57,381 bases of DNA from a virus (IMGVR_UViG_3300032435_000013:1-57381), one strand, 5' to 3'. Shown: positions 2 through 41,066, numbered from the stretch's first letter. Made by a program: numbers and translations. The notes: a model not told the origin generated them from the letters alone.

Positions 2-565
2 GATAAAGGTATTTTCGGTTATGGTACTACTGGAAGTAATGTTTCAATGACTAATTTAGTTTCAAGTTCAGGTGTGGTGGCTACAGACACAACAGGTGTA
101 GGTACAGCTAGAGAGTCTTTAGCAGCAACAACTTACGGTGGTGACAAAGCTATCTTTGGATATGGTACTACAGGAAGTTTTGTTTCAATGTCTAATCTAG
201 TATCTAATTTAGGTGTAGTGGCTACTGACACGACTGGTGTTGGAGCGGCAAGAGCCTATTTAGCAGCATCTTCTTATGGAACAGACAAGGCTATATTTGG
301 GTATGGTACTACTGGTTCAGTTGTTTCTATAACAAATTTAGTTTCAAATACTGGTGTTGTAGCAGCAAACACAACAGGTGTAGGTACAGCTAGACACGGT
401 ATAGCAGCTGCTGGGTATGGTGGCGACAAAGCCATATTTGGTTATGGTGAAACTTTTTCTATAACAAATTTAGTAAATAATTCTGGAGTAGTTGCTAGTG
501 ATACTACGGGTGTAGGAACTGCTAGGAGAGCATTAGCAGCAGCAGGATATTCAATAAGTGCATAA
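2..565 (+). CDS. Tail fibre/receptor-binding protein, C-terminal part (5'-truncated; continuation of the gene starting at 56556)
   Basis: Frame is open from base 2 (DKGIFGYG...). Four 47-aa repeats DKAIFGYG..VS.TNLVS..GVVA.DTTGVGTAR..LAA..YG, same family as those at the right end. Confidence 0.8.
   Translation, partial: DKGIFGYGTTGSNVSMTNLVSSSGVVATDTTGVGTARESLAATTYGGDKAIFGYGTTGSFVSMSNLVSNLGVVATDTTGVGAARAYLAASSYGTDKAIFGYGTTGSVVSITNLVSNTGVVAANTTGVGTARHGIAAAGYGGDKAIFGYGETFSITNLVNNSGVVASDTTGVGTARRALAAAGYSISA
17..127 (+). repeat. 111-bp perfect repeat, identical to 57255-57365
   Basis: Direct comparison; flanks diverge on both sides. Confidence 0.95.
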
Positions 566-2011: not shown

Positions 2012-3931
2012 ATGGCATTAACAAAAGTTCCATTTCAAGCAGGCTTTAATAAACAAATAACCAACACCCAAGCAGAAAATGTATGGGTAGATGGAGATAA
2101 CGTACGCTTTCGTTATGGTCAACCTGAAAAAATAGGTGGATGGTTACAGATAGAACAATATAGTATGATAGGAGCAGCTCGTGCTCAACATACGTTTGCT
2201 GATTTAGATGGTAGAAAATATGCCGCTATAGGAACTAATCGCTGTCTATATGTTTATTACGCAGGTGATTTTTATGACATTACCCCTATTGATCCAGATA
2301 GACAACAAACAGGCGCAGACATTACTACTACCAATGGTTCTACTACTGTCACCATTACAACAACAACTAATCATCTATTAGAAATTGGTGATATTATTAC
2401 TTTTGAAAATGCTGGTTCTTTTACTGGAGCAACTAATTATACTGCTGTTAATTTTGACGACATTTTATTTGAAGTAAAAACTATACCCACTACTGCTACT
2501 TTTACTATTACCATGCCTACCGCTGAAACAGGATCGGGAGGAACCAATGATGGTACGCTAGATGTATTACCTTATATTGCTATTGGTCCCTTACTACAAA
2601 CACCCGCTTATGGATGGGGTGCAGGTCGCTGGGGCTCTTCTACTTGGGGTACACCACGAACTACTGCAAACGCCCTATTAGATCCAGGGCTGTGGTCTTT
2701 AGATAACTTTGGTCAAATTTTAATCGCTACTGTGCATAATGGAAAATCTTTTCAATGGACTCCTATTGCAGGAAATGCAAGTGCCTTAGTAACTAGGGCT
2801 GCTATTATAGCGGGTTGTCCTACTGTATCGTATATGTCTATTGTATCCGATAGAGATAGGCATTTAGTACTATTAGGTACGGAGACCATTATAGGAGACC
2901 CTACTACTCAAGATAAGATGTTTATTAGGTTCTCGGATCAAGAAGATATTAATGTATATGCACCTACCTCTGTAAATACAGCGGGAACTTTTAGAATTGA
3001 TTCTGGAACAGAGATAAGATGTGCTTCTAAAGGTAAAGATTATACCTTTATCGCAACAGATTCAGCAGCTTATATTATGCAGTTTATTGGGACACCTTTT
3101 ACGTTTTCTATTAGACAGGTCGGTTCCAACTGTGGAAGCATTGGCCAAAATGCAGCAGTGTTTGTAGATACCAATGTGTATTGGATGAGCGATGAAGGTG
3201 GATTCTTCTTGTATGATGGATCCGTTAAAAAATTACCCTGCTTGGTGGAAGACTTTGTGTTTAAAACATTAAACGGTTCTCCTGGTCTTAATTATAATGC
3301 GGGACAACAAGTGTACTCTGCACACAATAGTTTATTTTCGGAAATTATATGGTTTTACCCAAGTGCTGGTTCTAATTTTGTAGATAGAATGGTTTGTTAT
3401 AATTATCAAAGTAGTGTGTGGACTACAGGAACTTTAGCTAGAACTTCTTATACCGATAAGGTGATTTTTGATAGACCTTTTGCAACTAAATTTACAAATA
3501 ACACTACTCCTACTTATCCTGTGGTGAATGGTATTAGTGTATCTCAAGGAGCAAGTATTTATTACGCACAAGAAACGGGAGTTAATGAAGTAGACTACAA
3601 TGGCAATGCTACTGCTATTCCAGCTTATATTGAATCGGGAGATTTTGATTTAGACGTAGATGGTAATGGTGGGGAATACTTTATTAAAATGAGAAGGTTT
3701 ATTCCAGATTTTAAAATATTAGACGGTAATGCAAAAATAACATTAAGCTTAAGAGATTACCCTTCTAATACAGCCTTGCCTACAACCTTTACTATTAACT
3801 CTAGTACCACTAAAGTAGACACGAGAATAAGAGCTAGACTTGCTGCACTTAAAGTAGAAAATACAGCAGTAGATGAAAACTGGCGATTAGGGTTGTTTAG
3901 ATTTGATTTTCAACCAGATGGTAGAAGATAA
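2012..3931 (+). CDS. Tail hub / DNA stabilisation protein (P22 gp10 / tail tubular B-like beta-propeller)
   Basis: 639 aa; DNVRFR..PEKIGGW, IRFSDQED and QPDGRR motifs typical of this podovirus group. Confidence 0.7.
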   Translation: MALTKVPFQAGFNKQITNTQAENVWVDGDNVRFRYGQPEKIGGWLQIEQYSMIGAARAQHTFADLDGRKYAAIGTNRCLYVYYAGDFYDITPIDPDRQQTGADITTTNGSTTVTITTTTNHLLEIGDIITFENAGSFTGATNYTAVNFDDILFEVKTIPTTATFTITMPTAETGSGGTNDGTLDVLPYIAIGPLLQTPAYGWGAGRWGSSTWGTPRTTANALLDPGLWSLDNFGQILIATVHNGKSFQWTPIAGNASALVTRAAIIAGCPTVSYMSIVSDRDRHLVLLGTETIIGDPTTQDKMFIRFSDQEDINVYAPTSVNTAGTFRIDSGTEIRCASKGKDYTFIATDSAAYIMQFIGTPFTFSIRQVGSNCGSIGQNAAVFVDTNVYWMSDEGGFFLYDGSVKKLPCLVEDFVFKTLNGSPGLNYNAGQQVYSAHNSLFSEIIWFYPSAGSNFVDRMVCYNYQSSVWTTGTLARTSYTDKVIFDRPFATKFTNNTTPTYPVVNGISVSQGASIYYAQETGVNEVDYNGNATAIPAYIESGDFDLDVDGNGGEYFIKMRRFIPDFKILDGNAKITLSLRDYPSNTALPTTFTINSSTTKVDTRIRARLAALKVENTAVDENWRLGLFRFDFQPDGRR

Positions 3932-18596: not shown

Positions 18597-18599
18597 TTT

Positions 18600-20162
18600 A
18601 TGCATAAGCAATTAGCTGAACTATTTGCTGGAGATGATTCCAAGTTCATTGAGGCCACCCTTACGGGGGTGGTCACTGAGCGTGGTAAGAAAGAAGCAAA
18701 ATATACCACGCTCCATGAACCTGTTACGGAAGATCTGTGGAAAGGTCATTTAGAAGGGGAATATAAAATTGGTATACTTCCTGAAAAAGGAGAGGTAGCT
18801 AAATGGGGTTGCATTGATATAGATCCAAAAAACTACACAGCATACTCTACTAAAAAATATATTGATTTAATTAAAACAACCAACTTACCCTTAATTCCAG
18901 TATTATCTAAATCTGGAGGACTACATTTATTTTTATTTTTAAAAGATTGGACAAACGTAAAAGAAATTAGATCTGTATTAGATAAATGGAATGACAAATA
19001 CTTTATGTCAAATGAAGTATTTCCCATGAATAAGGCAGTAGGTATGCCTTATAGTAATGCTAATGCAGCAGCTGAATACGCATTTAATGAAGATGGAAGA
19101 GGAATGTTATGTGCAAGTTTTATACAGTTAGCACAAGAGAAGATAACGACCATTGAAGCATTAAAAAACTTTAAAGAAAATTCTTATGAACCCGAAACAC
19201 AGTGGTCACAGTATCCACCTTGTGTACAGAAATTAATTAATGAGAAGTGGCATGGAGACCATAGAAACAATTTACTATTCAATGTCCTTGTTTTAGAAAC
19301 AAAAAAGAATGAAGCGATTAGTGTAGAAGATCTAATTACTATAGCTAGAAAAAGAAATACAGAAATATTTTCAAGACCTTTAGATGATAAAGAAGTCACC
19401 AGCTTAGCAAAGTCTATTAAAAAAGGAGGTTACTTTTATAAATGTCCTCCTAAACATCAGGAACTACAAAGCATCTGTAATAAAGAATTATGTAAAATGA
19501 GGACGTTAGGGGTTCAACCAGAAACACCTTCTGTTATAGATAAATTTATTAACATTACTTACGTTAAAGATTTAAAGACGATGTACTATGAATTTGATTA
19601 TGATGGAAACCATATTGTAGTTACTCCAGAAGATATGAAGGATGAAAAGTGTTGGAGAGTTAAGTTTTTAAAGTATGGGATTTATTGGATGACCTTATCC
19701 AAACCAAAGAGAGGCCCAGCTCCTTTTGAATTATTATTAAAAGAAATAACCGTACGTGCAAAAGAAAATAAAAACATGCAGTTTGAAGAAACATTAGAAG
19801 ACGCACGTTATAAAGGTTTAAAAGATTTCTTTGAAGACACTATTGAAGTAGATGACTTTAATAAACTAAAAGATGGTTACGTTATATTAGATTCTAAAAC
19901 AAACATGTGCTACTTCAAACGATCTACCATGGATGATTGGTTTAAGAATAAAAAAAGCAGAGTGTTTAATTCTTCTTTAGATGCAATTAAATTATTAGAA
20001 TGTATTCGTGTAGATTATGTAGAAGGTGTTAAGAATGTTTGGTCAGTACAAATGCCAGATTTTGTAAACCAACAATCAATTAAAGTTAAACCAAAGGAAG
20101 ATAACGTATCTGAAATGGATGATGCATACCACACGGGAAAATTTAGAAGCCCTCAAGCTTAA
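18600..20162 (+). CDS. AEP-superfamily primase(-polymerase) with C-terminal accessory domains
   Basis: WGCIDID (DxD), SKSGGLH, PPC...RNN motifs. Confidence 0.8.
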   Translation: MHKQLAELFAGDDSKFIEATLTGVVTERGKKEAKYTTLHEPVTEDLWKGHLEGEYKIGILPEKGEVAKWGCIDIDPKNYTAYSTKKYIDLIKTTNLPLIPVLSKSGGLHLFLFLKDWTNVKEIRSVLDKWNDKYFMSNEVFPMNKAVGMPYSNANAAAEYAFNEDGRGMLCASFIQLAQEKITTIEALKNFKENSYEPETQWSQYPPCVQKLINEKWHGDHRNNLLFNVLVLETKKNEAISVEDLITIARKRNTEIFSRPLDDKEVTSLAKSIKKGGYFYKCPPKHQELQSICNKELCKMRTLGVQPETPSVIDKFINITYVKDLKTMYYEFDYDGNHIVVTPEDMKDEKCWRVKFLKYGIYWMTLSKPKRGPAPFELLLKEITVRAKENKNMQFEETLEDARYKGLKDFFEDTIEVDDFNKLKDGYVILDSKTNMCYFKRSTMDDWFKNKKSRVFNSSLDAIKLLECIRVDYVEGVKNVWSVQMPDFVNQQSIKVKPKEDNVSEMDDAYHTGKFRSPQA

Positions 20163-31044: not shown

Positions 31045-31098
31045 TTTGTTTCCTTTCGTTTGTTTTATTAGCTTAGAATAAGTGTAATTGAAGACTGT

Positions 31099-31123
31099 GG
31101 CACGATTAAGGCAACATTGTGGC
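31099..31123 (-). promoter_or_regulatory. Triple GCC direct repeat with 11-bp period upstream of early block I
   Basis: GGC on + at 31099, 31110 and 31121. Confidence 0.6.
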
Positions 31124-31137
31124 TTTTGTGTGATTTG

Positions 31138-31938
31138 GAATAAGTCATTGATTTTAAAGGATAAAAACTTATCCACACAACTTGGGGTTGTAAGTAACTT
31201 ATTTTGTTCTCGTGAGTCGTGCCTCTGAGAAAACATAACTCACGAGAGTAGAAAGGGCAGTCATTTATGCAAATGAATGTAGAATAATAATAAGGTATTA
31301 GGGTGCATATGTCAAATGTTATTTTAGGCTATACAACTGTTGCGTGAATTTATGGCATATTGTGTGAACGGGATAAGAACGATACAAGAACATTGGTTTT
31401 TGGGGTGTGGGTAAAGTTTCGGGTATCACGGATCACGGATCACGGGTTTTCCTAGTTTTCCTAGTTTGCTGGGAAAATTCCCAGAAGTTTCCTAGTTTTT
31501 TTAAAAAAGTAGGACAAATAAGTTATTGATTTTAAAGCGTTTTCCTAGTTTTTCCTGAAACTACCCCCTATAAGGCACTTCCTTAGAAACTTTTTTTAAA
31601 AAAGATGAAATCCTAGATTTAAGACACATTGTCGCAGTTTCATGAATAAGTCATTGATTTTAAAGGATAAAAGAGCATTTTCAAAGTAGGAAAATACTAG
31701 GAAAATTCCTAGTATTTCAGGAAAGTGTTGATTAGCAAGGGTCATTTAGGTGTGACACTTTGTCAACTCTGGGAAAACATAGGTAAATCAACAGTTATTT
31801 ATTGTAACAATTAGTAATATTTAGTGTAAGGGGCTTTAATCAACAGTTATTTAATCTCTTACTTCGGCAAATATACAAAAATAAAAAATATTTTTTTAAT
31901 TTCTATAGATTGCCTATAAAACTAGGAAACTAGGAAAA
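31138..31938. other. Putative replication origin / packaging control region
   Basis: Non-coding. Perfect DnaA box TTATCCACA at 31169-31177; IHF-consensus sites at 31141, 31519, 31647; 29-bp direct repeat 31138-31166/31644-31672; many TTTCCTAG/CTAGGAAA iterons; TCACGG(A) x3 at 31426-31446. Confidence 0.65.
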
Positions 31939-31965
31939 TGTTCTGATATACTGTATTAACCTGAT

Positions 31966-32478
31966 ATGACAAAAAAAAGAAATGTCGTTAAAACAACTGC
32001 TGACCTAACACCTAAACAACGAAAGTTTGTTGATGTACTTGTGGCCAACTGGGGTCAAATGTCCAAAGCAGACGCTTGTGTTGAGGCGGGGTTTACTGCA
32101 CCTGTTGGAAAAAAACCTTATGAAATGGGAAGTAGATTAACTAATCCTGAATTAAATCCACATGTTTGTAGATACTTAGAAAAAAGATTATCACAAGAAT
32201 TACAAAAATATGAAACAGATAAATTAAGAAATTATAAAGTTTTTGAAAAATTGCGAGATGGTGCTGAAAGTAAAAACCAATATAACGCCTCTATCAACGC
32301 CCAAAAAAACATTGTACAAATGTCGGGTCAATTGATTGCTAAATCGGAAATCATGCACTCTACTATTGACGGAATGAACCGAGAACAGTTAGAAAAACGA
32401 TTAACCGAGCTAGAGGACAAGCTAAGTGAAAACAAATCGATTATTGACATTACGCCAGAAAAAATTGTTACAGAGTAA
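31966..32478 (+). CDS. terS: Terminase small subunit
   Basis: LTPKQRKFV..., A...AG., G.RL.NP...PHV HTH pattern; C-terminal IIDITP. Confidence 0.8.
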   Translation: MTKKRNVVKTTADLTPKQRKFVDVLVANWGQMSKADACVEAGFTAPVGKKPYEMGSRLTNPELNPHVCRYLEKRLSQELQKYETDKLRNYKVFEKLRDGAESKNQYNASINAQKNIVQMSGQLIAKSEIMHSTIDGMNREQLEKRLTELEDKLSENKSIIDITPEKIVTE

Positions 32479-32564
32479 AAAACCTAAAGATTTTTTTATT
32501 TTGTTTAATGAAGTACATAATGCAAAGTTTTTAAATACAAGCGTGGGCACAGTAAGCATAAAAA

Positions 32565-32867
32565 TTGATGAAAAAAAGAAAAATAACAATAAATAAAAAA
32601 GCAAAAAAAGAAATTGAACGCTATCCATTAGTTGAAATAAAATGGCTTGATATCGTTTCCGATAGTTCATGGCTATCTTGTAAAGATTTATCAAAAATGT
32701 CATTGCCTGTTTGCGTTACTAAAGGTCATTTATATTCTACCTCTAAAGGTATTACTCGAGTTTTTGCTGATTATAATTTAGTTAATGCGGAATTAGGCAC
32801 AATTGAAGATGTTTCGCAAGTTACTGTTATACCTAATTCAGTCATTGTTGAGATCAAGAAGTTATAA
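32565..32867 (+). CDS. Conserved phage hypothetical protein
   Basis: V.I.W.D....W, C.T.G, VIP.SVI motifs. Confidence 0.7.
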   Translation: MMKKRKITINKKAKKEIERYPLVEIKWLDIVSDSSWLSCKDLSKMSLPVCVTKGHLYSTSKGITRVFADYNLVNAELGTIEDVSQVTVIPNSVIVEIKKL

Positions 32868-33111
32868 GTTTATTATCGTAGGGCAATATGCTTTCAATCT
32901 CATTTTGTTTCATTACTTTTTTAATCTTTTTTTGATTATAAAAATCAATTAAAAAATAAATTGTTTGGGCGTGGGATAACACCCCTCTAAAATCCTCATT
33001 GCTTATATCGTTTATTTTTTCAAACTCCGATACTTTCAACGATAGCGTTTTAAAGTGTGTAACTTTATCATATCCGCCTACATATAGTTGTCGTTTATTG
33101 TGTTTTTTCAT
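32854..33111 (-). CDS. Possible ribbon-helix-helix-like small regulator
   Basis: FKTLSLKVSEFEKI...LSHAQTI.FLID pattern. Confidence 0.45.
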   Translation of the reverse strand: MKKHNKRQLYVGGYDKVTHFKTLSLKVSEFEKINDISNEDFRGVLSHAQTIYFLIDFYNQKKIKKVMKQNEIESILPYDNKLITS

Positions 33112-33478
33112 TTTATTTTACCCTTTCACTAGTTATGATTGACTCCATTATTTCTTGTGCCATGTCCCATTTGCCTAATAAATAAAGATCATGGTGATCT
33201 TCACATTTTGCGACATCATCTATATTTATGTTATCTAAATGATCTTGGCATATATCCTCTATTATTCTTACTAGCTTTGTTTTCATTGTTTACCCTTCCA
33301 TTTATTGTTTAAATTTCCATTTTTATTGAAATAGTTTTCTCTTATATCTTCAATAAAAGATTGCATAGTTTCCAAATCTACCTCAATACCATTTTGCAAT
33401 TCGGACAATTGGCTGTGTACCCACTCTATTTTTTCATATTCGTTCATTTTAGTTTACCCTTTCATTTGTTGTTTAAAA

Positions 33479-33760
33479 TTATTCAATATCTTCCCTAAAA
33501 GTTGGAATTATTGGTAGGTCATTTAAATTAGTTCCTATTGCCCCGCTTTCATTACCCTCGTCATCGCTTCTTGGTGTTAGAATAGTTCCATTATCCAAAT
33601 AGATTTCACAAGGTTGCTGACTCCACCCATGAATTTTTTCTGTTTCTTCAGGACTTAACCATTCTACTTTAACTATTTTTCTTCCAACTAAATGTTTATT
33701 TACTAATTTCTGCCAGTCTGTAGTCATTTCTGCACTAATCATTGTTATCCTTTCTTTCAT
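33479..33760 (-). CDS. Hypothetical early protein
   Basis: LVGRKI..V, LDNG, DDEGN..GA motifs. Confidence 0.75.
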   Translation of the reverse strand: MKERITMISAEMTTDWQKLVNKHLVGRKIVKVEWLSPEETEKIHGWSQQPCEIYLDNGTILTPRSDDEGNESGAIGTNLNDLPIIPTFREDIE

Positions 33761-33915
33761 TTAGTTTAAATATTTGTTTAGTTTTTTACGTACTAAAGTC
33801 ACCCAATCAAAGAACTCTTTAATAAAGTCTGGTTCTTTTCCTCGTTTACTCTCTAGTTCATCTAATGCTTCTTGTGATACTTTGTTTAATATTTCTAATT
33901 GTTTTTCTTGTCTGT

Positions 33916-34260
33916 TCAATTGTTCTCCTTTGAAAGTTTTTTTGCTCTATACATAAATTCTTTTGGTTTTATGTTGCAAAGCCAATCTTGTATTGATGGG
34001 ATAAATCCACAGTCTTCAATAATATGCTGTTCACCAATTAGTTTAACAGGTACTTTTTTGCCATCACTATTAGTGATGTAATCTCCAAACTTTTCAACAC
34101 ATTCTTTAATACCTAAGGAATGATGCTTTAATGCTCTATGTCTAAAGTTTGGGAAATATGCTTTAGTATCGTCAAACCAATTATGTATTGGTAGGTAGTC
34201 TTCTAACAGACCACCCCAATTTTTAACTGAAGATTGTGCATGATGTACAGGTGTGGACAT
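33916..34260 (-). CDS. DUF6915-like His-rich protein
   Basis: HHA.SSVK.WGG, IH.WFD..K, RHRAL.HH..GI, EQH..ED motifs. Confidence 0.75.
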   Translation of the reverse strand: MSTPVHHAQSSVKNWGGLLEDYLPIHNWFDDTKAYFPNFRHRALKHHSLGIKECVEKFGDYITNSDGKKVPVKLIGEQHIIEDCGFIPSIQDWLCNIKPKEFMYRAKKLSKENN

Positions 34261-34811
34261 TATGCTACCGATCCTTCCTGTTCTATATCTTCAGATTCTT
34301 CATTTGTTTGACTACCAGTTACATGATACTTTTTAGTTATTACGTTTAGTTTTACTTCTCCATCTACATGGAATTCATCAGCAAAGGATCCGTATTCACT
34401 CAATGCTCCTGTTCCGTACAATATTGACATTGCACTATAATCACTATTTAGTTGCAATAAATCTATATTTTTCGAATATTCAGAAACATAATATTTTATT
34501 TCTTTATTTTCTTCGTTTTTATACACAAAATATTGTGTAACCCAAGATGCTGTAAGATTTTTAGGTTCTACTTTTTTAAGATTTTCATCATAAAAATCAG
34601 CGTCATCAAACCCCCCTTCGTCATGCCCACCTGAAAAATTACCCTCAATATATGTAATATTGTTTTCTTTAAACTTATCTTGTAAAGAATCCAATACATT
34701 ATTTAGATTTTTTTGGTTGTATTCTTTTTCGATATTTGATTCAATATCAAACCAGCTATACTTTTTATCTCGTTTAGTAGTTTTAATTAACTTAATTTCT
34801 TCTATACGCAT
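34260..34811 (-). CDS. DUF6878-like acidic protein
   Basis: F.GG.DEG motif; TAATG-coupled to the DUF6915-like gene. Confidence 0.55.
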   Translation of the reverse strand: MRIEEIKLIKTTKRDKKYSWFDIESNIEKEYNQKNLNNVLDSLQDKFKENNITYIEGNFSGGHDEGGFDDADFYDENLKKVEPKNLTASWVTQYFVYKNEENKEIKYYVSEYSKNIDLLQLNSDYSAMSILYGTGALSEYGSFADEFHVDGEVKLNVITKKYHVTGSQTNEESEDIEQEGSVA

Positions 34812-34832
34812 TATTTTCCCTTTCCTTTGTTG

Positions 34833-35534
34833 TTAAATGTTAATTACAAACCCGCTATTGTCTTTTTTTGCTTTACCTTTAGCAATCAATCCAACAATCG
34901 AATTTTTCGGGTCTAAAAAACGCAAATCGTTTAAATCCCCGTTTATTACTTTACGGCCTAAATAAGTTTTAGGCAGTTTATTAAAAACAACCGCAATATT
35001 TTGTTTCGTGGTCATTATTAGTTCTTGTATTTCGTTGTCGTTGCTTTCACTTTTTGAAAATGTCAATTGATAATTTTTCGGTAAAGCGTCCTTCAATCTA
35101 TTCTTAATTTTCGTATAATCATGAAAATCAATTGTAGGGTTATTGTCCATTAAACTCAAACCATTCTCTAATCTATACCGTTCAAACGGTAAATCGCTAG
35201 TCCCATTTAAACGAACATTTAATTTTAAATTTAAAGCCGTTGCCCGTTTATAGTAGTTTTTTATTTCTCTATCTAATTGTTTCAAAAATTTAACTCTATC
35301 TTGTAAAAAGTATTTTGTTTTATTTAAGCGGGACAGCTTCACGCTATCAAATACACCCCGCCCGCTTAAATTTAAACAGCTTGCAATGCACCCCTTGCTT
35401 GCCTTTGGACATATATTCACACCGCTTAATTTATAGGGTGCTAAATATAATATAACCGACAAATAACCAAACTTGACCGATTTTTGCATTTTGTAATTAT
35501 CAAATCTTAAAAGTTTTTGCACGGGTTTATACAT
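34833..35534 (-). CDS. Gp88-like protein (Cys-triad, radical-SAM-like enzyme)
   Basis: CPKASKGCIASC, RLNGTSD, DYTK, GD.NDLRFLD, GL.AKG motifs; start taken at MYKPV. Confidence 0.7.
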   Translation of the reverse strand: MYKPVQKLLRFDNYKMQKSVKFGYLSVILYLAPYKLSGVNICPKASKGCIASCLNLSGRGVFDSVKLSRLNKTKYFLQDRVKFLKQLDREIKNYYKRATALNLKLNVRLNGTSDLPFERYRLENGLSLMDNNPTIDFHDYTKIKNRLKDALPKNYQLTFSKSESNDNEIQELIMTTKQNIAVVFNKLPKTYLGRKVINGDLNDLRFLDPKNSIVGLIAKGKAKKDNSGFVINI

Positions 35535-36847
35535 TGTCCACCCCCTTAACAATATCAATAATAAATTTAAAATTTCTTAAATCATAATAAAACTTTGTCT
35601 GTGATTTCCAAAGTTTATCCCGCAAATCATTTTTACAAAATCTAATCGCTTCAATTTCATTAGACCCCCTTGATTGCATGGCAATCAGTCCCGCACCATT
35701 AAAAGCCACGCACTCGTATAGCTGTTTATTCATTGTTACAACCTCACCCTAATTCTTTTGGCTAGTTTTTTATCTTTCATATTGTTCAAAATATCTTTGA
35801 TTAGATATTTTCTAGCTATAGAAGTTATCGGATTAATAAAATTTAAGTCATTATGATTTTTTGAAATTTCTTTCATTTCTTCTATTTGAATGGAAGTTCC
35901 AAAATTAAAAGCAATTAACATACCATTGGAAGTATGGAAATTGGTATCTGTATTACCCTCTAAAGTTTTTAAAAAGGGTTCAAAATACTTTTTGTTATTT
36001 ATGTTTAATGTAGTCATTTTTTATTTTCCTTTATGTTTTATGTCGTCAGTATATCCGCCCTCAAAATAATTCCAAGAAAAACATTTTGGGCATAGAATTT
36101 GATTGCTTTTTAGGTCTGCGTCTTTGTAGTTGTCGTTTTCTGCCCACATAAACCCTTTATGTCCGCAACTATCACAATAAAGTTTTTTATCATTTCTTAT
36201 ATATTCAAATTCTTTTTTATTAATATTATATATATTTGGCGATAAAACCCCCCTAATAAAATTTGATGCTTGAATTGGTTTGCTAGTCATTTTTTATTTT
36301 CCTTTCCTTTATTGTTTATTAAGCAACCTCTTTTTGTTTAATTGTCAAAATATAATTTCCTAAATCAATTTGCTTTTTTTCATAATCAAGTTCAGCATTT
36401 TTAAATTTAGTAAAATCAATATTTTTATATTGTGTATTTTGCATTATTGCGTCCCACACAGATTCAATAATTTTTACATCTTTTTTCATTTGTTTTTTTC
36501 CTTTCGTTTGTTTATTATTTTAAATTAATAATTGCTTGGTTATATCCAATAATAAAACCTAACATTTCTTCTTTGCTGTTAAATCTTTTAATGTCTCTGC
36601 AGTATTGGCTATATCCATTATTAATTGAATATTTATTAAAACAAACGCCTTTGTTTTTTATTTCTTCGCTTGTAATATTATTATATCCATATTTTAAAAG
36701 ATTTTTTGTAAATTCAGCACATTGGTTCGCATGAAAATACTTATTATCACCTTTTAAAACTACATTAATATTTTGTTTATTTTTTTTAAACTCAATGTCA
36801 TTTTGTTTTTGGTATTGGTTTGTTTTTGCTTCTTGTTGTGTGTGCAT
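35527..36847 (-). other. Leftward early ORFs 35527-35733, 35736-36017, 36021-36290 (CxxC...CxxC zinc ribbon), 36515-36847
   Basis: ORF track plus RBSs. Confidence 0.7.
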
Positions 36848-36904
36848 ATTATTTTACCCCTTTGTTGTTAAATTAAATGAGATTAAGTTATAAAAAAACA
36901 TTAT

Positions 36905-36920
36905 GGCGAAAACAAGGCAA
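36905..36920 (-). promoter_or_regulatory. TTGCC-N6-TCGCC direct-repeat site upstream of the leftward early operon
   Basis: Reverse complement TTGCCTTGTTTTCGCC. Confidence 0.55.
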
Positions 36921-36978
36921 ATAAAGAAATAATATAAAAAAATTAAGTTGTTGATTTTTAATAAATCTTTTTTGTTCT

Positions 36979-37024
36979 GTGCCTTAATTCTGCCGTATTT
37001 ATATATTAATTAATAAGACATAAA
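36979..37024 (+). promoter_or_regulatory. Cassette promoter 1 (GTGCCT-17-TATATT); 36980-37024 is identical to 38472-38516
   Basis: Direct comparison; sigma70 spacing. Confidence 0.75.
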
Positions 37025-37044
37025 CTTAACAAAGGACAAAAAAA

Positions 37045-37995
37045 ATGAGTGCATTAAGTAAAATAACAAAGGACGCTCTGACAGTTTTAAAAAATAAGAT
37101 TGTTGAAGGGCTAAAAAATGACGGCCTAAAATGGTTCAAATCATTTAAGGGTATTGGTTCGCCCGCAAATGCTTTAACTCAAAAAAATTATAAAGGCATT
37201 AATTTTTGGGCTTTGGGTATTAATAAAAAAGAAAACAACTACGCCACTATTTACTACGCTACAAAAAAAGCGTGGCAGTCAGTAGGTGCTACAATTAAAG
37301 ACGGTCAAAGCCAAAATGGTACGGCGGTTTTTTATTACGGCGTTTTCAAAAAGTCTGTAAAAAATAATAAAAACGAAGACAAAGACAAGCAATTTTCATT
37401 TTTAAAAATTAGTTATGTTTATAACTATGAACAAATGAATTTTGAAAATTCAACTTATACGCTACCACCTAAAAAAGAAAATCAAGTCATTGATATAACA
37501 GAAATTGAAAGCTTTGTTAAAAATATCAAAGACCTTGATTTAAGACACTCAAACGAGGGTCGCTGTTATTATAGCCCTTTGTTAAATTATGTCCATATGA
37601 CAGAAAAAACGGGCTTTATAAATGTCGCTGATAAATCAGCGTCTTTTAATTATTACAGCGTTTTATTTCATGAACTTAGCCATTGGACTGGTCATAAATC
37701 GAGAACGGCTCGATTTGAAAAAAATGTTAAATATTTTAAGGATGATGTTCAGTTAGAGTATGCACTCGAGGAATTGGTTGCTGAAATATCTGCCAATATG
37801 CTTTGTATGCATTTTGGCCTTGATAAGACAATCAATCAAAATTCCATTGCTTATCTTAAAAGTTGGATATCACGCCTTGAAAATGACGATAAATTTTTAC
37901 TAAAGGCACTATCTCAAAGTGCTGGTGCTAGCACCTATTTATTAGAAAACAGCACCGCAACGCTTCAAAGCGTACCAGTTTTAAAGGTTGCTTAA
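37045..37995 (+). CDS. ardC: ArdC-family antirestriction protein (ssDNA-binding domain + zincin-like metallopeptidase)
   Basis: P.N..T...YKGIN, T.K.W...GA.I; YYSP..NYVHM, FHELSHWTGH..R, YALEELVAE, AYLKSW. Confidence 0.92.
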   Translation: MSALSKITKDALTVLKNKIVEGLKNDGLKWFKSFKGIGSPANALTQKNYKGINFWALGINKKENNYATIYYATKKAWQSVGATIKDGQSQNGTAVFYYGVFKKSVKNNKNEDKDKQFSFLKISYVYNYEQMNFENSTYTLPPKKENQVIDITEIESFVKNIKDLDLRHSNEGRCYYSPLLNYVHMTEKTGFINVADKSASFNYYSVLFHELSHWTGHKSRTARFEKNVKYFKDDVQLEYALEELVAEISANMLCMHFGLDKTINQNSIAYLKSWISRLENDDKFLLKALSQSAGASTYLLENSTATLQSVPVLKVA

Positions 37996-38005
37996 TAATC
38001 AAGCG

Positions 38006-38076
38006 TAATTAAAAGCGGGCTTAAAACGCCCGCTTTTTTTAGGTTATAACTTGCCTTAATTCTGCCGTATTTATAT
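38006..38076 (+). repeat. 71-bp terminator+promoter module, copy A (identical to 38426-38496)
   Basis: AAAAGCGGGC-TTAAAAC-GCCCGCTTTTTTT, then TTGCCT-17-TATGCT. Confidence 0.95.
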
Positions 38077-38121
38077 GCTTATGTATTAAATATGTTAAAC
38101 AACTTAAACAAAGGGCAAAAA

Positions 38122-38412
38122 ATGACTGAAGAAAAAATACTAAAAACAGAAATAGAAAAAACAGTAAAAAATATCTTTAAATATATTGGATATCTTAAAG
38201 ACAAAGATTGTACTGATATTAATCTTTTTAAATCTGTTTTAAATTCTAAATTATGGGACTTGGCCTCACATCAGGCCAAAAATTTTGACTTGGTTAATCA
38301 AGTTTTATTAGAAAAAAATCTTGTTATTAATGAGCAAGGCAAGGTTGAAGAATACGACCCAAAAAAACACGCTTTGTTGTACAATAATTATAAATCTTAT
38401 TCTTTAGCATAA
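38122..38412 (+). CDS. Hypothetical cassette gene 2 (start corrected to MTEEK)
   Basis: AAACAAAGGGCAAAAAATG leader matching the other cassettes. Confidence 0.8.
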   Translation: MTEEKILKTEIEKTVKNIFKYIGYLKDKDCTDINLFKSVLNSKLWDLASHQAKNFDLVNQVLLEKNLVINEQGKVEEYDPKKHALLYNNYKSYSLA

Positions 38413-38425
38413 ATCAATAAATATT

Positions 38426-38496
38426 TAATTAAAAGCGGGCTTAAAACGCCCGCTTTTTTTAGGTTATAACTTGCCTTAATTCTGCCGTATTTATAT
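38426..38496 (+). repeat. 71-bp terminator+promoter module, copy B
   Basis: Identical to 38006-38076; promoter TTGCCT-17-TATATT. Confidence 0.95.
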
Positions 38497-38537
38497 ATTA
38501 ATTAATAAGACATAAAATGAACAAAGGACAAAAAAAA

Positions 38538-38825
38538 ATGTTAACAAAAAAACACTTTAAGGAATTAACAAAAATTCACGCTAAGGCCTTAAAAGCAATA
38601 AAGGACAACGATCCAAAAACTGCATATAATATTTTTGAGTTTGGATTGCGGGATTTTTATCAATCCATTAATGTAAATTTTGATGATCTCAAATTTGAGA
38701 AGCGTACTCAAAAATTAGCCAATACTAAGCCCGCTAAACTTGTTGAAAGCAACGATTTAACGGGATTTGATGCAATTGACCATTTAGAGCGTAGAGAGCT
38801 TTTAGATGCTCAAATGAATAATTAA
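38538..38825 (+). CDS. Hypothetical cassette gene 3 (start corrected to MLTKKHF)
   Basis: AACAAAGGACAAAAAAAAATG leader as for ardC; TKKHF...N.NFD..KF motif. Confidence 0.8.
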   Translation: MLTKKHFKELTKIHAKALKAIKDNDPKTAYNIFEFGLRDFYQSINVNFDDLKFEKRTQKLANTKPAKLVESNDLTGFDAIDHLERRELLDAQMNN

Positions 38826-38840
38826 AAACTTAAAATAATT

Positions 38841-38875
38841 TAATTAAAAGCGGGCTTAAAACGCCCGCTTTTTTT
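38841..38875 (+). terminator. Third identical terminator copy closing the cassette array
   Basis: 35 bp identical to 38006-38040 and 38426-38460. Confidence 0.92.
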
Positions 38876-38921
38876 GTGTCCGTTGACTTGATAAATACAC
38901 GCTTAAATTGTATTGATAAGC

Positions 38922-39323
38922 ATGGCAAAAAACAAAGAATCTCTATTGTTTAAGAGAATTAAAACAGCATTAAAAACCGCCTACCTATTAAGAATTGAGA
39001 CATCAACGGTCAAAGGCGTAGCTGATGTTTTTTGTATTTATAAACGCTGTTCTTTTTGGGTTGAATTAAAAGCAAACGACAGCAAGAATTTACAGCTAGG
39101 CGGGTTTCAATTGAATTGGCACGACACCATCAATAAACACGGCGGTCACTCGTTTATCTTAGTAAAGACCATCGGGCAACGAGGTCTTAAAATCTACAGC
39201 GTTGAGGGTAGAGGCGTGAAGTTTTTACACCAATACACCGACACGGCGGGCGGGTTGGTTGAAGCGTTCCAATTCATGCAAGGCCACACCCTCGGGCTTC
39301 AAGGTCATAATATAAAAACCTAG
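38922..39323 (+). CDS. VRR-NUC-like nuclease / resolvase
   Basis: ES.L, RIE....GVADV, FWVELK, Q..WH motifs. Confidence 0.8.
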   Translation: MAKNKESLLFKRIKTALKTAYLLRIETSTVKGVADVFCIYKRCSFWVELKANDSKNLQLGGFQLNWHDTINKHGGHSFILVKTIGQRGLKIYSVEGRGVKFLHQYTDTAGGLVEAFQFMQGHTLGLQGHNIKT

Positions 39324-39328
39324 TGAAT

Positions 39329-39486
39329 TGATTATCACTAGCGATAATCATTACTTATCACTAGGGATAATCTCGCACAATCTAACATACCCACGAGGGT
39401 AGAGGCGTGACCCTTGAGGCCTGAGCCACGAGCCGAAGCTCTAAGGGTCATTTGAGGGTTGACCTTATGTTTGCCTTATTTCTGCC
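39329..39486. promoter_or_regulatory. Palindrome/repeat cluster upstream of terL
   Basis: Two TTATCACTAGNGATAA palindromes, a 16-bp direct repeat, a hairpin and an ACC/GCC/GCC 11-bp-period repeat. Confidence 0.55.
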
Positions 39487-39569
39487 ACAATTGACCCCTA
39501 TTTTTTTTTATTTTTTTTTACAGAGTGTACTTGAGCAGGATTCATAAACGCAGTAAGGTAGAATAAACT

Positions 39570-41066
39570 ATGGTTTTAGAAAAAAAGGGGCCCATCCAAA
39601 AAGACCTATTATCCACTGATCAATTAAGACTTGAGGTGGAAAAAAAACTCATTGAGCATATTAAACTTTGCCAAGATAATTTTTTATATTTTGTTCAAGA
39701 GGTCTGGCCTGATTTTATTTGTAGAAAAGAAAAGGACCCAAATAAATGGGGGCACCATCAAATCATGGCTAAAGAGTTTACTCGTATATCTGATCAGAGA
39801 AAAGGGAGGCTTATTGTGAATATGCCACCTAGGCACACTAAAAGCGAATTTGCTTCTGTGTTCTACCCAGCATGGATGATTGGAAGGAACCCTAAATTAA
39901 AAATTATGCAGGTAACGCACAATGCCGAACTATCTGCTAGATTTGGTTCTAAGGTTCGTAACTTAATTGACTCTAGAGAATATAAACAAATTTTTGGAGA
40001 TGTCCGTTTACGACAAGACTCTAAAGCAAAGGGACGTTGGGAAACAAATCATGGTGGTGAATATTTTGCTGCTGGTGTAGGAGGCGCAATCACAGGGCGT
40101 GGTGCGGATTTGTTAATCATTGACGATCCACATACCGAACAAGATTCTTTATCTCGTAATGCTATGGAGAGATGTTATGATTGGTATGCATCAGGACCCA
40201 GACAACGTTTACAACCTGGAGGCTCTATTGTTTTAGTTATGACGAGATGGGCAGAGAATGATTTAACGGGGACCCTCATTAGAAATCAGAAGGAAGAAAA
40301 AGCAGACAAGTGGAAGTTAATTTCTTTTCCTGCAATCTTAGAATCAGGGAACCCTTTGTGGCCAGAATTTTGGGAGAAATCTGAATTAGAAAAAGTCAAA
40401 GCATCGTTACCCATTCGTAACTGGTCTGCACAGTATATGCAGAACCCCACTTCAGAAGAAGGAGCTATCATCAAAAGAGACTGGTGGAGACCTTGGAAAA
40501 AAGATGTACCCGCATTACAGCATGTTATACAAAGTTACGATACCGCATTCAGTGCAAAAGAGACTGCCGACTATTCTGCTATTACTACGTGGGGGGTATT
40601 CTATCCTCAAGAAGGCGGGGCGGCTAATCTTATGTTGTTAGATGCAATGAAAGGTAAATATGATTTTCCTGAATTAAAAAATCTGGCATTTGATCAATAT
40701 AAATTTTGGGAACCTGAATCTGTAATCATTGAGGCTAAAGCATCAGGAGAACCGTTGATGCAAGAATTTAGAAGAATGGGAATACCAGTAATACCTTTTG
40801 TTCCTAGTAAAGGAAAAGATAAACATACTAGAGTTAATGCTACTGCACCCTTATTTGAATCAGGGTCCATATGGTATCCAGAAGGAGAACGCTTTGCAGA
40901 TGAGGTTATTGAGGAATGTGCTGCCTTTCCTCATGGTCAATATGATGACTATGTTGATAGTACTACCCAAGCCGTGTTAAGATACAGGCAAGGTAACTTC
41001 TTTGATGTAAGCTCCGACTACAAGGACAACTCAAATAAGTACAAAAAAGAATATAAATACTATTAA
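39570..41066 (+). CDS. terL: Terminase large subunit
   Basis: MPPRHTKSE, IIDDPH, MTRW, YMQNP, SYDTA, DYSA, DDYVDS motifs. Confidence 0.95.
   Translation: MVLEKKGPIQKDLLSTDQLRLEVEKKLIEHIKLCQDNFLYFVQEVWPDFICRKEKDPNKWGHHQIMAKEFTRISDQRKGRLIVNMPPRHTKSEFASVFYPAWMIGRNPKLKIMQVTHNAELSARFGSKVRNLIDSREYKQIFGDVRLRQDSKAKGRWETNHGGEYFAAGVGGAITGRGADLLIIDDPHTEQDSLSRNAMERCYDWYASGPRQRLQPGGSIVLVMTRWAENDLTGTLIRNQKEEKADKWKLISFPAILESGNPLWPEFWEKSELEKVKASLPIRNWSAQYMQNPTSEEGAIIKRDWWRPWKKDVPALQHVIQSYDTAFSAKETADYSAITTWGVFYPQEGGAANLMLLDAMKGKYDFPELKNLAFDQYKFWEPESVIIEAKASGEPLMQEFRRMGIPVIPFVPSKGKDKHTRVNATAPLFESGSIWYPEGERFADEVIEECAAFPHGQYDDYVDSTTQAVLRYRQGNFFDVSSDYKDNSNKYKKEYKYY

Follow-up and report, generated by a model that had tools for sequence, protein, structure and literature searches.

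Tandem 11-bp TGCC repeats at six promoter regions of a podovirus-like genome, candidate sites for a host OmpR/PhoB-family regulator of the ChvI type

The marine phage record IMGVR_UViG_3300032435_000013:1-57381 of the IMG/VR database (57,381 bp, classed as linear and 95% complete, and called here the window in its whole length) carries at six places a tandem repeat built on TGCC with a period of 11 bp. These repeats stand upstream of early operons and of the large terminase gene (terL), recur in phages of at least two podovirus families, and are also found before envelope genes on bacterial chromosomes. Their layout suggests a protein-binding site laid over the -35 region of promoters. The initial annotation of this DNA had proposed that the phage may be wired by such repeats to a host regulator of the OmpR/ChvI type. 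The reading favored here is that a host regulator of the OmpR family would occupy the boxes, with ChvI as the leading candidate, and on the sequence comparisons described below its probability is put at about one in two.

The pattern KTGCC-N7-YGCC, searched on both strands of the window, has exactly six matches where 0.39 would be expected, and none of 100 dinucleotide shuffles reached this number. The six matches are precisely the sites listed by the initial annotation, all of them present where it had placed them, and each fits without any mismatch the tighter pattern TGCCTTNNTNNNGCC. They are also, as had been claimed, always intergenic and turned towards the downstream operon, each facing a start codon 66-99 bp downstream. 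For site 1, this orientation towards the next gene depends on the use of the start codon ATG 31044, which is provided with the ribosome-binding site (RBS) AAAGGAAAC, and not of the upstream ATG 31236, which lies inside a hairpin.

Site 1 (31092..31124, minus strand) is composed of three 11-bp units, AGCCACAATGT TGCCTTAATCG TGCCACAGTCT, whose GCC triplets at 31123, 31112 and 31101 display the exact 11-bp spacing first noticed there, and it heads a leftward operon that runs from 31044 to 27443. Site 2 (36898..36919, minus strand), with the two units TGCCTTGTTTT CGCCATAATGT, heads another leftward operon, from 36847 to 32854; both operons are made of small uncharacterised genes. The remaining sites are on the plus strand. 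Site 3 (36980..37001, units TGCCTTAATTC TGCCGTATTTA) lies upstream of an ArdC-like gene (37045-37995), site 4 (38052..38073) precedes a small gene that ends at 38412 and likely starts at 38122, and site 5 (38472..38493) precedes another small gene that ends at 38825 and likely starts at 38538. Sites 3, 4 and 5 are near-identical copies of a single cassette of about 45 bp, the last two each following an identical terminator hairpin, so that the six sites represent four independent sequences, and it is among these four that the spacers differ, as had been stated. Site 6 (39461..39504), upstream of terL (39570-41066), has the four units GACCTTATGTT TGCCTTATTTC TGCCACAATTG ACCCCTATTTT; it reads ACC/GCC/GCC plus a fourth degenerate unit, the outer two of the four units being degenerate.

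When the sites are aligned with those of terL relatives, the repeated unit is TGCC(T/A)(T/C)A(A/T)T-NN, an 11-bp element arranged head-to-tail in 2-4 copies. A 20-mer covering two units, TGCCTTAWTNNTGCCRYAWT, was used to scan IMG/VR and yielded at least 125 instances at no fewer than 119 loci. With the spacing changed to 10 bp, 12 matches (4 distinct) were recorded, and with 12 bp, 74 matches (34 distinct), the latter having a different second-unit make-up and few ACA second units. The 11-bp phasing is specific, though not absolute. The matches listed gave, after dereplication at 75% identity, a set of 99 viral contexts in which even the degenerate positions of the pattern are skewed, with A at position 16 in 93/99 and C at position 17 in 76/99. 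The strongest signal outside the pattern is an A at +29 (65/99), accompanied by an enrichment of T at +28, +30 and +33. This signal points to a TAnnnT -10 element at +28..33, which would set the two TGCC near -39 and -28 and the array over the -35 region.

In the window, the interval +28..33 holds TACACT at site 1 (31081..31086, minus strand, counted from the TGCCTT unit), a candidate -10 based on a reading of the sequence and on the position class of the viral logo, TATAAC at site 2 (candidate, 36892-36887) and TATTTT at site 6 (candidate, 39499-39504, inside the last unit). The candidates of sites 3, 4 and 5 are TATATT (37002-37007), TATGCT (38074-38079) and TATATT (38494-38499), respectively. 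The base preceding TGCC is T in 49 of the 99 contexts and is thus not conserved, which argues that the element is not simply a TTGCCT -35 hexamer. A scan for consensus sigma-70 promoters passes one of the six sites (9 of 12), the TGCC of the majority class being placed at -39 and not where a -35 that works with no activator, close to TTGACA and 16-18 bp from the -10, would have to be. Pho boxes and class II sites of the OmpR/PhoB family consist of two 7-bp cores with 4-bp A/T spacers, located about 10 bp upstream of the -10. Judged by this geometry, the motif appears to act as a tandem-repeat protein site of the Pho-box kind overlapping the -35 region.

The DNA upstream of terL was compared at 33 loci. 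The motif is present at seven of them, and at eight others the leader is clearly homologous and both central units, hence both GCCs, have been replaced together (TTTTAAATAAATTCCAAAAAT); at 17 the leader is unrelated, and one locus is truncated. Such a conservation or loss of both units together is expected of a functional two-part site. Two relatives whose TerL is 93% identical (L007 and L012) keep TGCC...GCC in 11-bp phase at the homologous sites with changed spacers. Their terL site consists of the four units TGCCTTATTCT TGCCACATTTC TGCCACAATTT AGCCACAATCC, and that of L025 has four units too. The initial annotation had asked whether the second GCC and the phasing are lost in homologous promoters: they are not, both being retained in these two relatives.

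Two other segments of the terL leader can be mentioned for themselves. The sequence CTTGAGCAGGATTCATAAACGCAGTAAGGTAGAAT (39530-39563), directly upstream of terL, shows almost no base change in relatives with TerL identities as low as 79% (L007, L012, L014-L025), and a hairpin and AAGGGTCAT (39409-39452), upstream of site 6, are conserved likewise.

The contigs of IMG/VR in which the 20-mer was detected, at least 119 in number, have GC contents from 0.23 to 0.61 and belong to at least two podovirus families. Among the matches listed, 74 of the 83 instances with flanks have no open frame of more than 250 codons spanning the motif, and the genes that follow the box fall into 44 singletons and 8 small clusters, unrelated to one another, which rules out a conserved cargo gene. 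When five long motif-bearing records were compared, a related TerL (63%) was encoded by one of them only, G009. This phage is of the HTVC023P type and another one, G008, of the HMO-2011 type, and both carry the box. The capsid protein of G008 shares 81-83% identity with its counterparts in Puniceispirillum phage HMO-2011 and Roseobacter phage CRP-345, and the cultured relatives in its match list at 55% identity or more all infect Alphaproteobacteria. In most of the other phage genomes with the motif, one or two copies occur, at the head of operons of small uncharacterised genes. In the literature searched on HTVC023P and on ChvI, no paper describing such boxes in phages was found.

The box is not restricted to viruses. 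Among 401 alphaproteobacterial genomes searched with at most one mismatch, 41 contain it, with 53 matches versus 7 for the reversed control. With up to two mismatches, the matches and control matches number 22 and 1 in genome G404, 17 and 3 in G340, and 5 and 1 in G224, and genomes G353 and G048 are at the control level. The chromosomal copies are oriented in the same way and stand at similar distances from the -10. In G340 and G404, the downstream genes encode MurJ (358 bits), a GlmU-like protein, a Mur ligase, a bacterial alpha-2-macroglobulin, a VanW-like protein and trigger factor, together with many signal-peptide proteins; this is an envelope and peptidoglycan set. The first sample of chromosomal matches with one mismatch was more mixed and included AcrB, an S24 peptidase, a Clp ATPase and uncharacterised genes. 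The presence of the box before housekeeping envelope genes implies that a cellular protein binds it. A search of ten of these chromosomal loci against Rfam returned two tRNAs and nothing else. As a side observation, three high-GC alphaproteobacterial genomes (L368, L369, L370; G352, G046, G223) share TTCCTTATTCTTGCCACATTCCGGTCCTAAACGGGACACAGGGCA, an A/T-rich box followed by conserved sequence, which matches no Rfam family.

The rule on which the initial annotation had relied, that ChvI recognises GCC repeats 11 bp apart, is in print, in passages of two Caulobacter papers (PMC9731502; bioRxiv 10.1101/2021.04.17.440287). One describes GCC direct repeats 11 nt apart that resemble those of Sinorhizobium meliloti ChvI, and the other gives the S. 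meliloti consensus as N-GCC-N8-GCC. All six sites fit this rule, the comparison with ChvI being one of GCC spacing only. Another regulator, CenR, has a reported site of a different sequence, TGA-N8-TGA. Genomes G340, G404 and G224 each have five matches to Trans_reg_C, the OmpR-type winged-helix domain, and in G340 and G404 these include PhoB, CtrA, OmpR-like and CreB-like regulators. In G340, the gene of the CreB-like regulator is followed by those of a kinase with a Stimulus_sens_1 domain, HprK, RapZ and EIIA, and G224 shows the order regulator-kinase-HprK-EIIA. Since this synteny of response regulator, histidine kinase and HprK matches the chvI-chvG-hprK arrangement described for ChvI in the literature consulted, the CreB-like regulator is identified as the ChvI orthologue. 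Genomes of the SAR11 group (Pelagibacterales) encode PhoB, an OmpR/EnvZ-like pair, a short winged-helix protein and an orphan regulator beside polA. The orphan is 53%, 51% and 46% identical to the ChvI orthologues of the G340/G404/G224 set and has in common with them the recognition helix RTIDSH(I/V/M)KR(I/L)R; it has no neighbouring kinase and HprK. A sequence search of the PDB found no ChvI entry.

PhoB was also considered as the binder. Its geometry fits and its core does not: the SAR11 pstS and pstC leaders (L399 4904-4988 and 6030-6140; L400 5285-5397) carry the tandem TGTAAYA-N4-TGTAACA, apparently the SAR11 Pho box, whereas the phage core is TGCC(A/T)YA. PhoB is unlikely on account of this difference.

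From these elements, the following mechanism can be proposed. The array of 2-4 head-to-tail 11-bp units would be occupied by an OmpR/PhoB-family response regulator with a winged helix, whose subunits would sit side by side on the same face of the DNA as a tandem dimer or oligomer. At sites 1, 2 and 6 of the window and in the majority of the other viral copies, the array would take the place of the -35 element, and the host sigma-70 RNA polymerase would then need the bound regulator to transcribe, which is class II activation of the kind known from Pho boxes. This regulator would be host-encoded, presumably the ChvI orthologue of an alphaproteobacterial host, and the phage would in this way tie its early operons, its ArdC-like gene and its terL/structural operon to a signal of the state of the host envelope. 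A more ambitious version, tentative and in our opinion more doubtful than the general reading, makes the ChvI-type envelope-stress box an "ignition key" common to unrelated podovirus families that infect Alphaproteobacteria: the breach of the envelope at infection would activate the host ChvI orthologue, which would fire the early, anti-restriction and packaging promoters. If this were true, the presence or absence of the box would mark the host lineages that a phage can use, its absence in HTVC023P and HTVC027P, which infect SAR11, would be explained, and the host of the present phage would be no typical SAR11.

Several observations weigh against a host regulator of the ChvI type. Among 121 Pelagibacterales genomes, no exact match was found and eight genomes have a single match with one mismatch, versus 4 control matches, the recurrent match being located inside a 305-codon open reading frame. 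No match with fewer than two mismatches was obtained in five SAR11 genomes. In the SAR11 genome G003 (1.297 Mb), a position weight matrix derived from the viral sites reaches at best 13.0 bits and its reversed form 13.1; the scores of the phage sites are 19.5-35.3 bits. The same genome contains 33 copies of GCC-N8-GCC, of which 0/33 are in noncoding DNA (4.2% by a crude gene call) and 2/33 are within 100 nt upstream of a gene start. The box is thus found at candidate chromosomal targets in G340 and G404 and not in SAR11. Among phages, the distribution is patchy: of 14 records (13 cultured phages and the seawater assembly psg01) searched with at most two mismatches, two match, Rhizobium phage RHph_N3_13 (1 mismatch) and HTVC115P (2 mismatches), both in terminal noncoding DNA, and no match was found in HTVC023P, HTVC027P, psg01, DSL-LC04, HMO-2011, three CRP phages, phiM6, HTVC033P and two phages of Gammaproteobacteria. 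The corresponding region of HTVC023P displays TTGACA-N17-TATAAT promoters instead. On the side of the regulator, the binder is not singled out among the five OmpR-family proteins of each of G340, G404 and G224, and no box was detected upstream of any response-regulator gene in these three genomes, which rules out autoregulation there. The paper that gives the S. meliloti N-GCC-N8-GCC consensus proposes, in the passages concerned, TTGC-N3-GCAA for Caulobacter instead. Finally, the promoter geometry is not uniform, the -10 being about 5 bp closer at sites 3-5 and in some chromosomal copies, which leaves room for repression beside activation.

The lack of SAR11 sites would have one of three explanations: the host is no typical SAR11, the SAR11 orphan regulator acts without such strong chromosomal sites, or a phage protein binds the repeats. 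The wiring to a host OmpR/ChvI-type regulator proposed in the initial annotation has been borne out in part. The two-unit box before envelope genes of alphaproteobacterial chromosomes and the lack of a phage OmpR-type winged helix speak for it; against a SAR11 version of the wiring stand the missing chromosomal sites and the cultured SAR11 phages HTVC023P and HTVC027P, which do not have the motif. Independently of this question, one SAR11 locus (G001:C1:569581-569610; L209) contains, beside a tRNA gene, three tandem 11-bp units GGCAC(T/A)ATCCT, which resemble the phage arrays in form and have TGGC, not TGCC.

The main competitor of a host regulator, itself unlikely, is a DNA-binding protein encoded by the phage, of a family outside Pfam and PHROGs, that would serve as an early-to-late switch or as an autoregulator, box and factor travelling together between phage families. 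It would account for SAR11 genomes devoid of the motif and for the patchiness of the motif even within one phage type. In its favor are also the early genes of the window, the majority of which matched no family, and the first gene of the leftward operon headed by site 2 (36515-36847), which encodes a 110-amino-acid protein and has a weak, sub-threshold match to an HSF-type winged helix (E 0.0043). This explanation is difficult to reconcile with a box that also precedes housekeeping envelope genes on bacterial chromosomes, and with most other motif-bearing phage genomes having one or two copies only. Moreover, a tail protein, phrog_644, a DUF3310-like protein and DNA polymerase are all that the six motif-bearing genomes compared, which include phages of two families, have in common, and no common regulator gene was found among them by blastp or phmmer. 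The 110-amino-acid protein was rejected as the factor, its homologues in L215-L217 having no TGCC box upstream.

That the sites are ordinary sigma-70 promoters, with a -35 that reads TTGCCT by chance and a second GCC hitch-hiking in the spacer, is quite improbable. Sites 3-5 do read TTGCCT-N17-TATATT, one of them being the site called by the consensus scan with 9 of 12, and all six sites are at promoter distance from start codons; against this, the two TGCC are equally conserved, among the relatives and in the 99 viral contexts, arrays reach 3-4 units, the T before TGCC varies and the -10 puts TGCC at -39 in most instances. In addition, HTVC023P and other promoters of the window use TTGACA or TTGACT, and sigma-70-like matches are not enriched in the region (35 versus 45.9 expected). 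Loading sites for a packaging or replication protein, such as TerS/pac boxes or iterons, are very improbable. They would agree with the longest arrays being beside terL (site 6), with the position of site 1 at the edge of a 921-bp repeat-rich region beside terS, with the terminal location of the box in RHph_N3_13 and HTVC115P, and with its proximity to the contig end in several long contigs. They would leave aside that sites 2-5 are followed at fixed distance by a -10 and an RBS, ahead of early genes, that the chromosomal copies precede envelope genes, and that the two phage families do not have related terminases (1/5 genomes matched). The chance that the opposite strand, GGCA-N7-GGCA, forms a sigma-54 promoter of the -24/-12 type is negligible. 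The reverse complement of site 1, TGGCACG-ATTA-AGGCA, has a GG...GC spacing equal to that of the sigma-54 consensus; sites 4-6 would nevertheless fire into terminators and antisense to genes, and Sigma54_DBD was found neither in the SAR11 genomes G001-G003 nor in G404, which has the largest chromosomal set (22 sites).

The genomic context of the sites can now be described. PHROG and Pfam scans give the window a podovirus-like layout, with the structural and replication genes on the plus strand. Its large terminase shares 76.6% identity with the terminase of Pelagibacter phage HTVC023P and 64.6% with that of HTVC027P, and a megablast of the region against phage records gave no match. No RNA polymerase or sigma factor turned up in the PHROG and Pfam scans of the window, a six-frame scan of the phage detected no Trans_reg_C domain, and none of 43 phage proteins scanned matched a CII-like family. 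An open frame of 521 codons is present at 18597-20118. The GroES-like and S-adenosylmethionine (SAM) decarboxylase-like proteins of the phage have weak matches only (26-32% identity), where any, and are uninformative on the host. In the loci L216 (about 3450-3500) and L217 (about 3750-3790), palindromes GTTGCA-N4/5-TGCAAC take the place of TGCC repeats upstream of the homologues of the 110-amino-acid protein, and look like a different type of operator at the same place.

The terminator hairpin that precedes sites 4 and 5 exists in three identical copies on the plus strand (38011-38037, 38431-38457 and 38846-38872), which delimit the promoter cassettes. Each copy separates single small genes; the TGCC cassette comes after two of them and a TTGACT promoter after the third, an arrangement that looks like duplicated modules of terminator and promoter. 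Between the leftward operon of site 1 and terS (31966-32478) lies a noncoding segment of 921 bp packed with repeats (31045-31965), which may be an origin or a pac region. It contains copies of CTAGGAAA(A)/TTTTCCTAG, which recur in the corresponding region of HTVC023P (L001 11319-11866), three tandem ATCACGG and three copies of AATAAGTCATTGATTTTAAAGGATAAAA. A perfect DnaA-box-like sequence, TTATCCACA, is located at 31169-31177 on the minus strand. Upstream of site 1 and on the same strand, a near-consensus sigma-70 promoter, TTGACA-17-TATTAT (11/12), occupies 31287-31315, with a hairpin downstream of it at about 31205-31250.

The repeats would define, by sequence, a promoter class common to at least two podovirus families and to bacterial envelope genes. 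Such a class would provide a testable model for the timing of gene expression in these phages, as well as a compact, high-affinity consensus for a poorly defined regulator of Alphaproteobacteria. The box may also help to indicate the host range of marine phages that are not in culture.

Several known systems can be compared with these sites. The boxes of ChvI (ExoS/ChvI, BvrR) in Alphaproteobacteria come first, with GCC direct repeats 11 nt apart as set out in the passages cited above (PMC9731502; bioRxiv 10.1101/2021.04.17.440287) and a regulon centred on the envelope, as for the copies of G340 and G404. The boxes described here differ in being located in phage promoters and in having no counterpart found in SAR11 genomes, and the two are compared by GCC spacing only. 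Class II promoters of PhoB have the architecture proposed here for sites 1, 2 and 6 and for most other viral copies, with two 7-bp repeats, 4-bp A/T spacers and an 11-bp period in place of the -35, at about 10 bp from the -10; they differ by their core, TGTCA, where the phage has TGCC(A/T)YA. The wiring of phage genes to a host two-component regulator has a precedent in the Pho boxes of cyanophages, reportedly described by Zeng and Chisholm in 2012. There, an auxiliary metabolic gene is concerned; here, core early and packaging promoters are, to which the precedent would be extended if the favored reading holds. In phage lambda, the CII-dependent promoters contain TTGC-N6-TTGC with a period of 10, and CII is encoded by the phage. 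The likeness lies in direct repeats that straddle a weak -35 and in a dependence on an activator, proposed for the present sites, whose period is 11. The MotA box of T4 stands alone, is centred at -30 and requires two proteins of the phage, MotA and AsiA. It also defines a class of phage promoters with a TGC-containing box upstream of a TAnnnT -10, whereas the boxes of the present phage are in tandem and occur on bacterial chromosomes as well.

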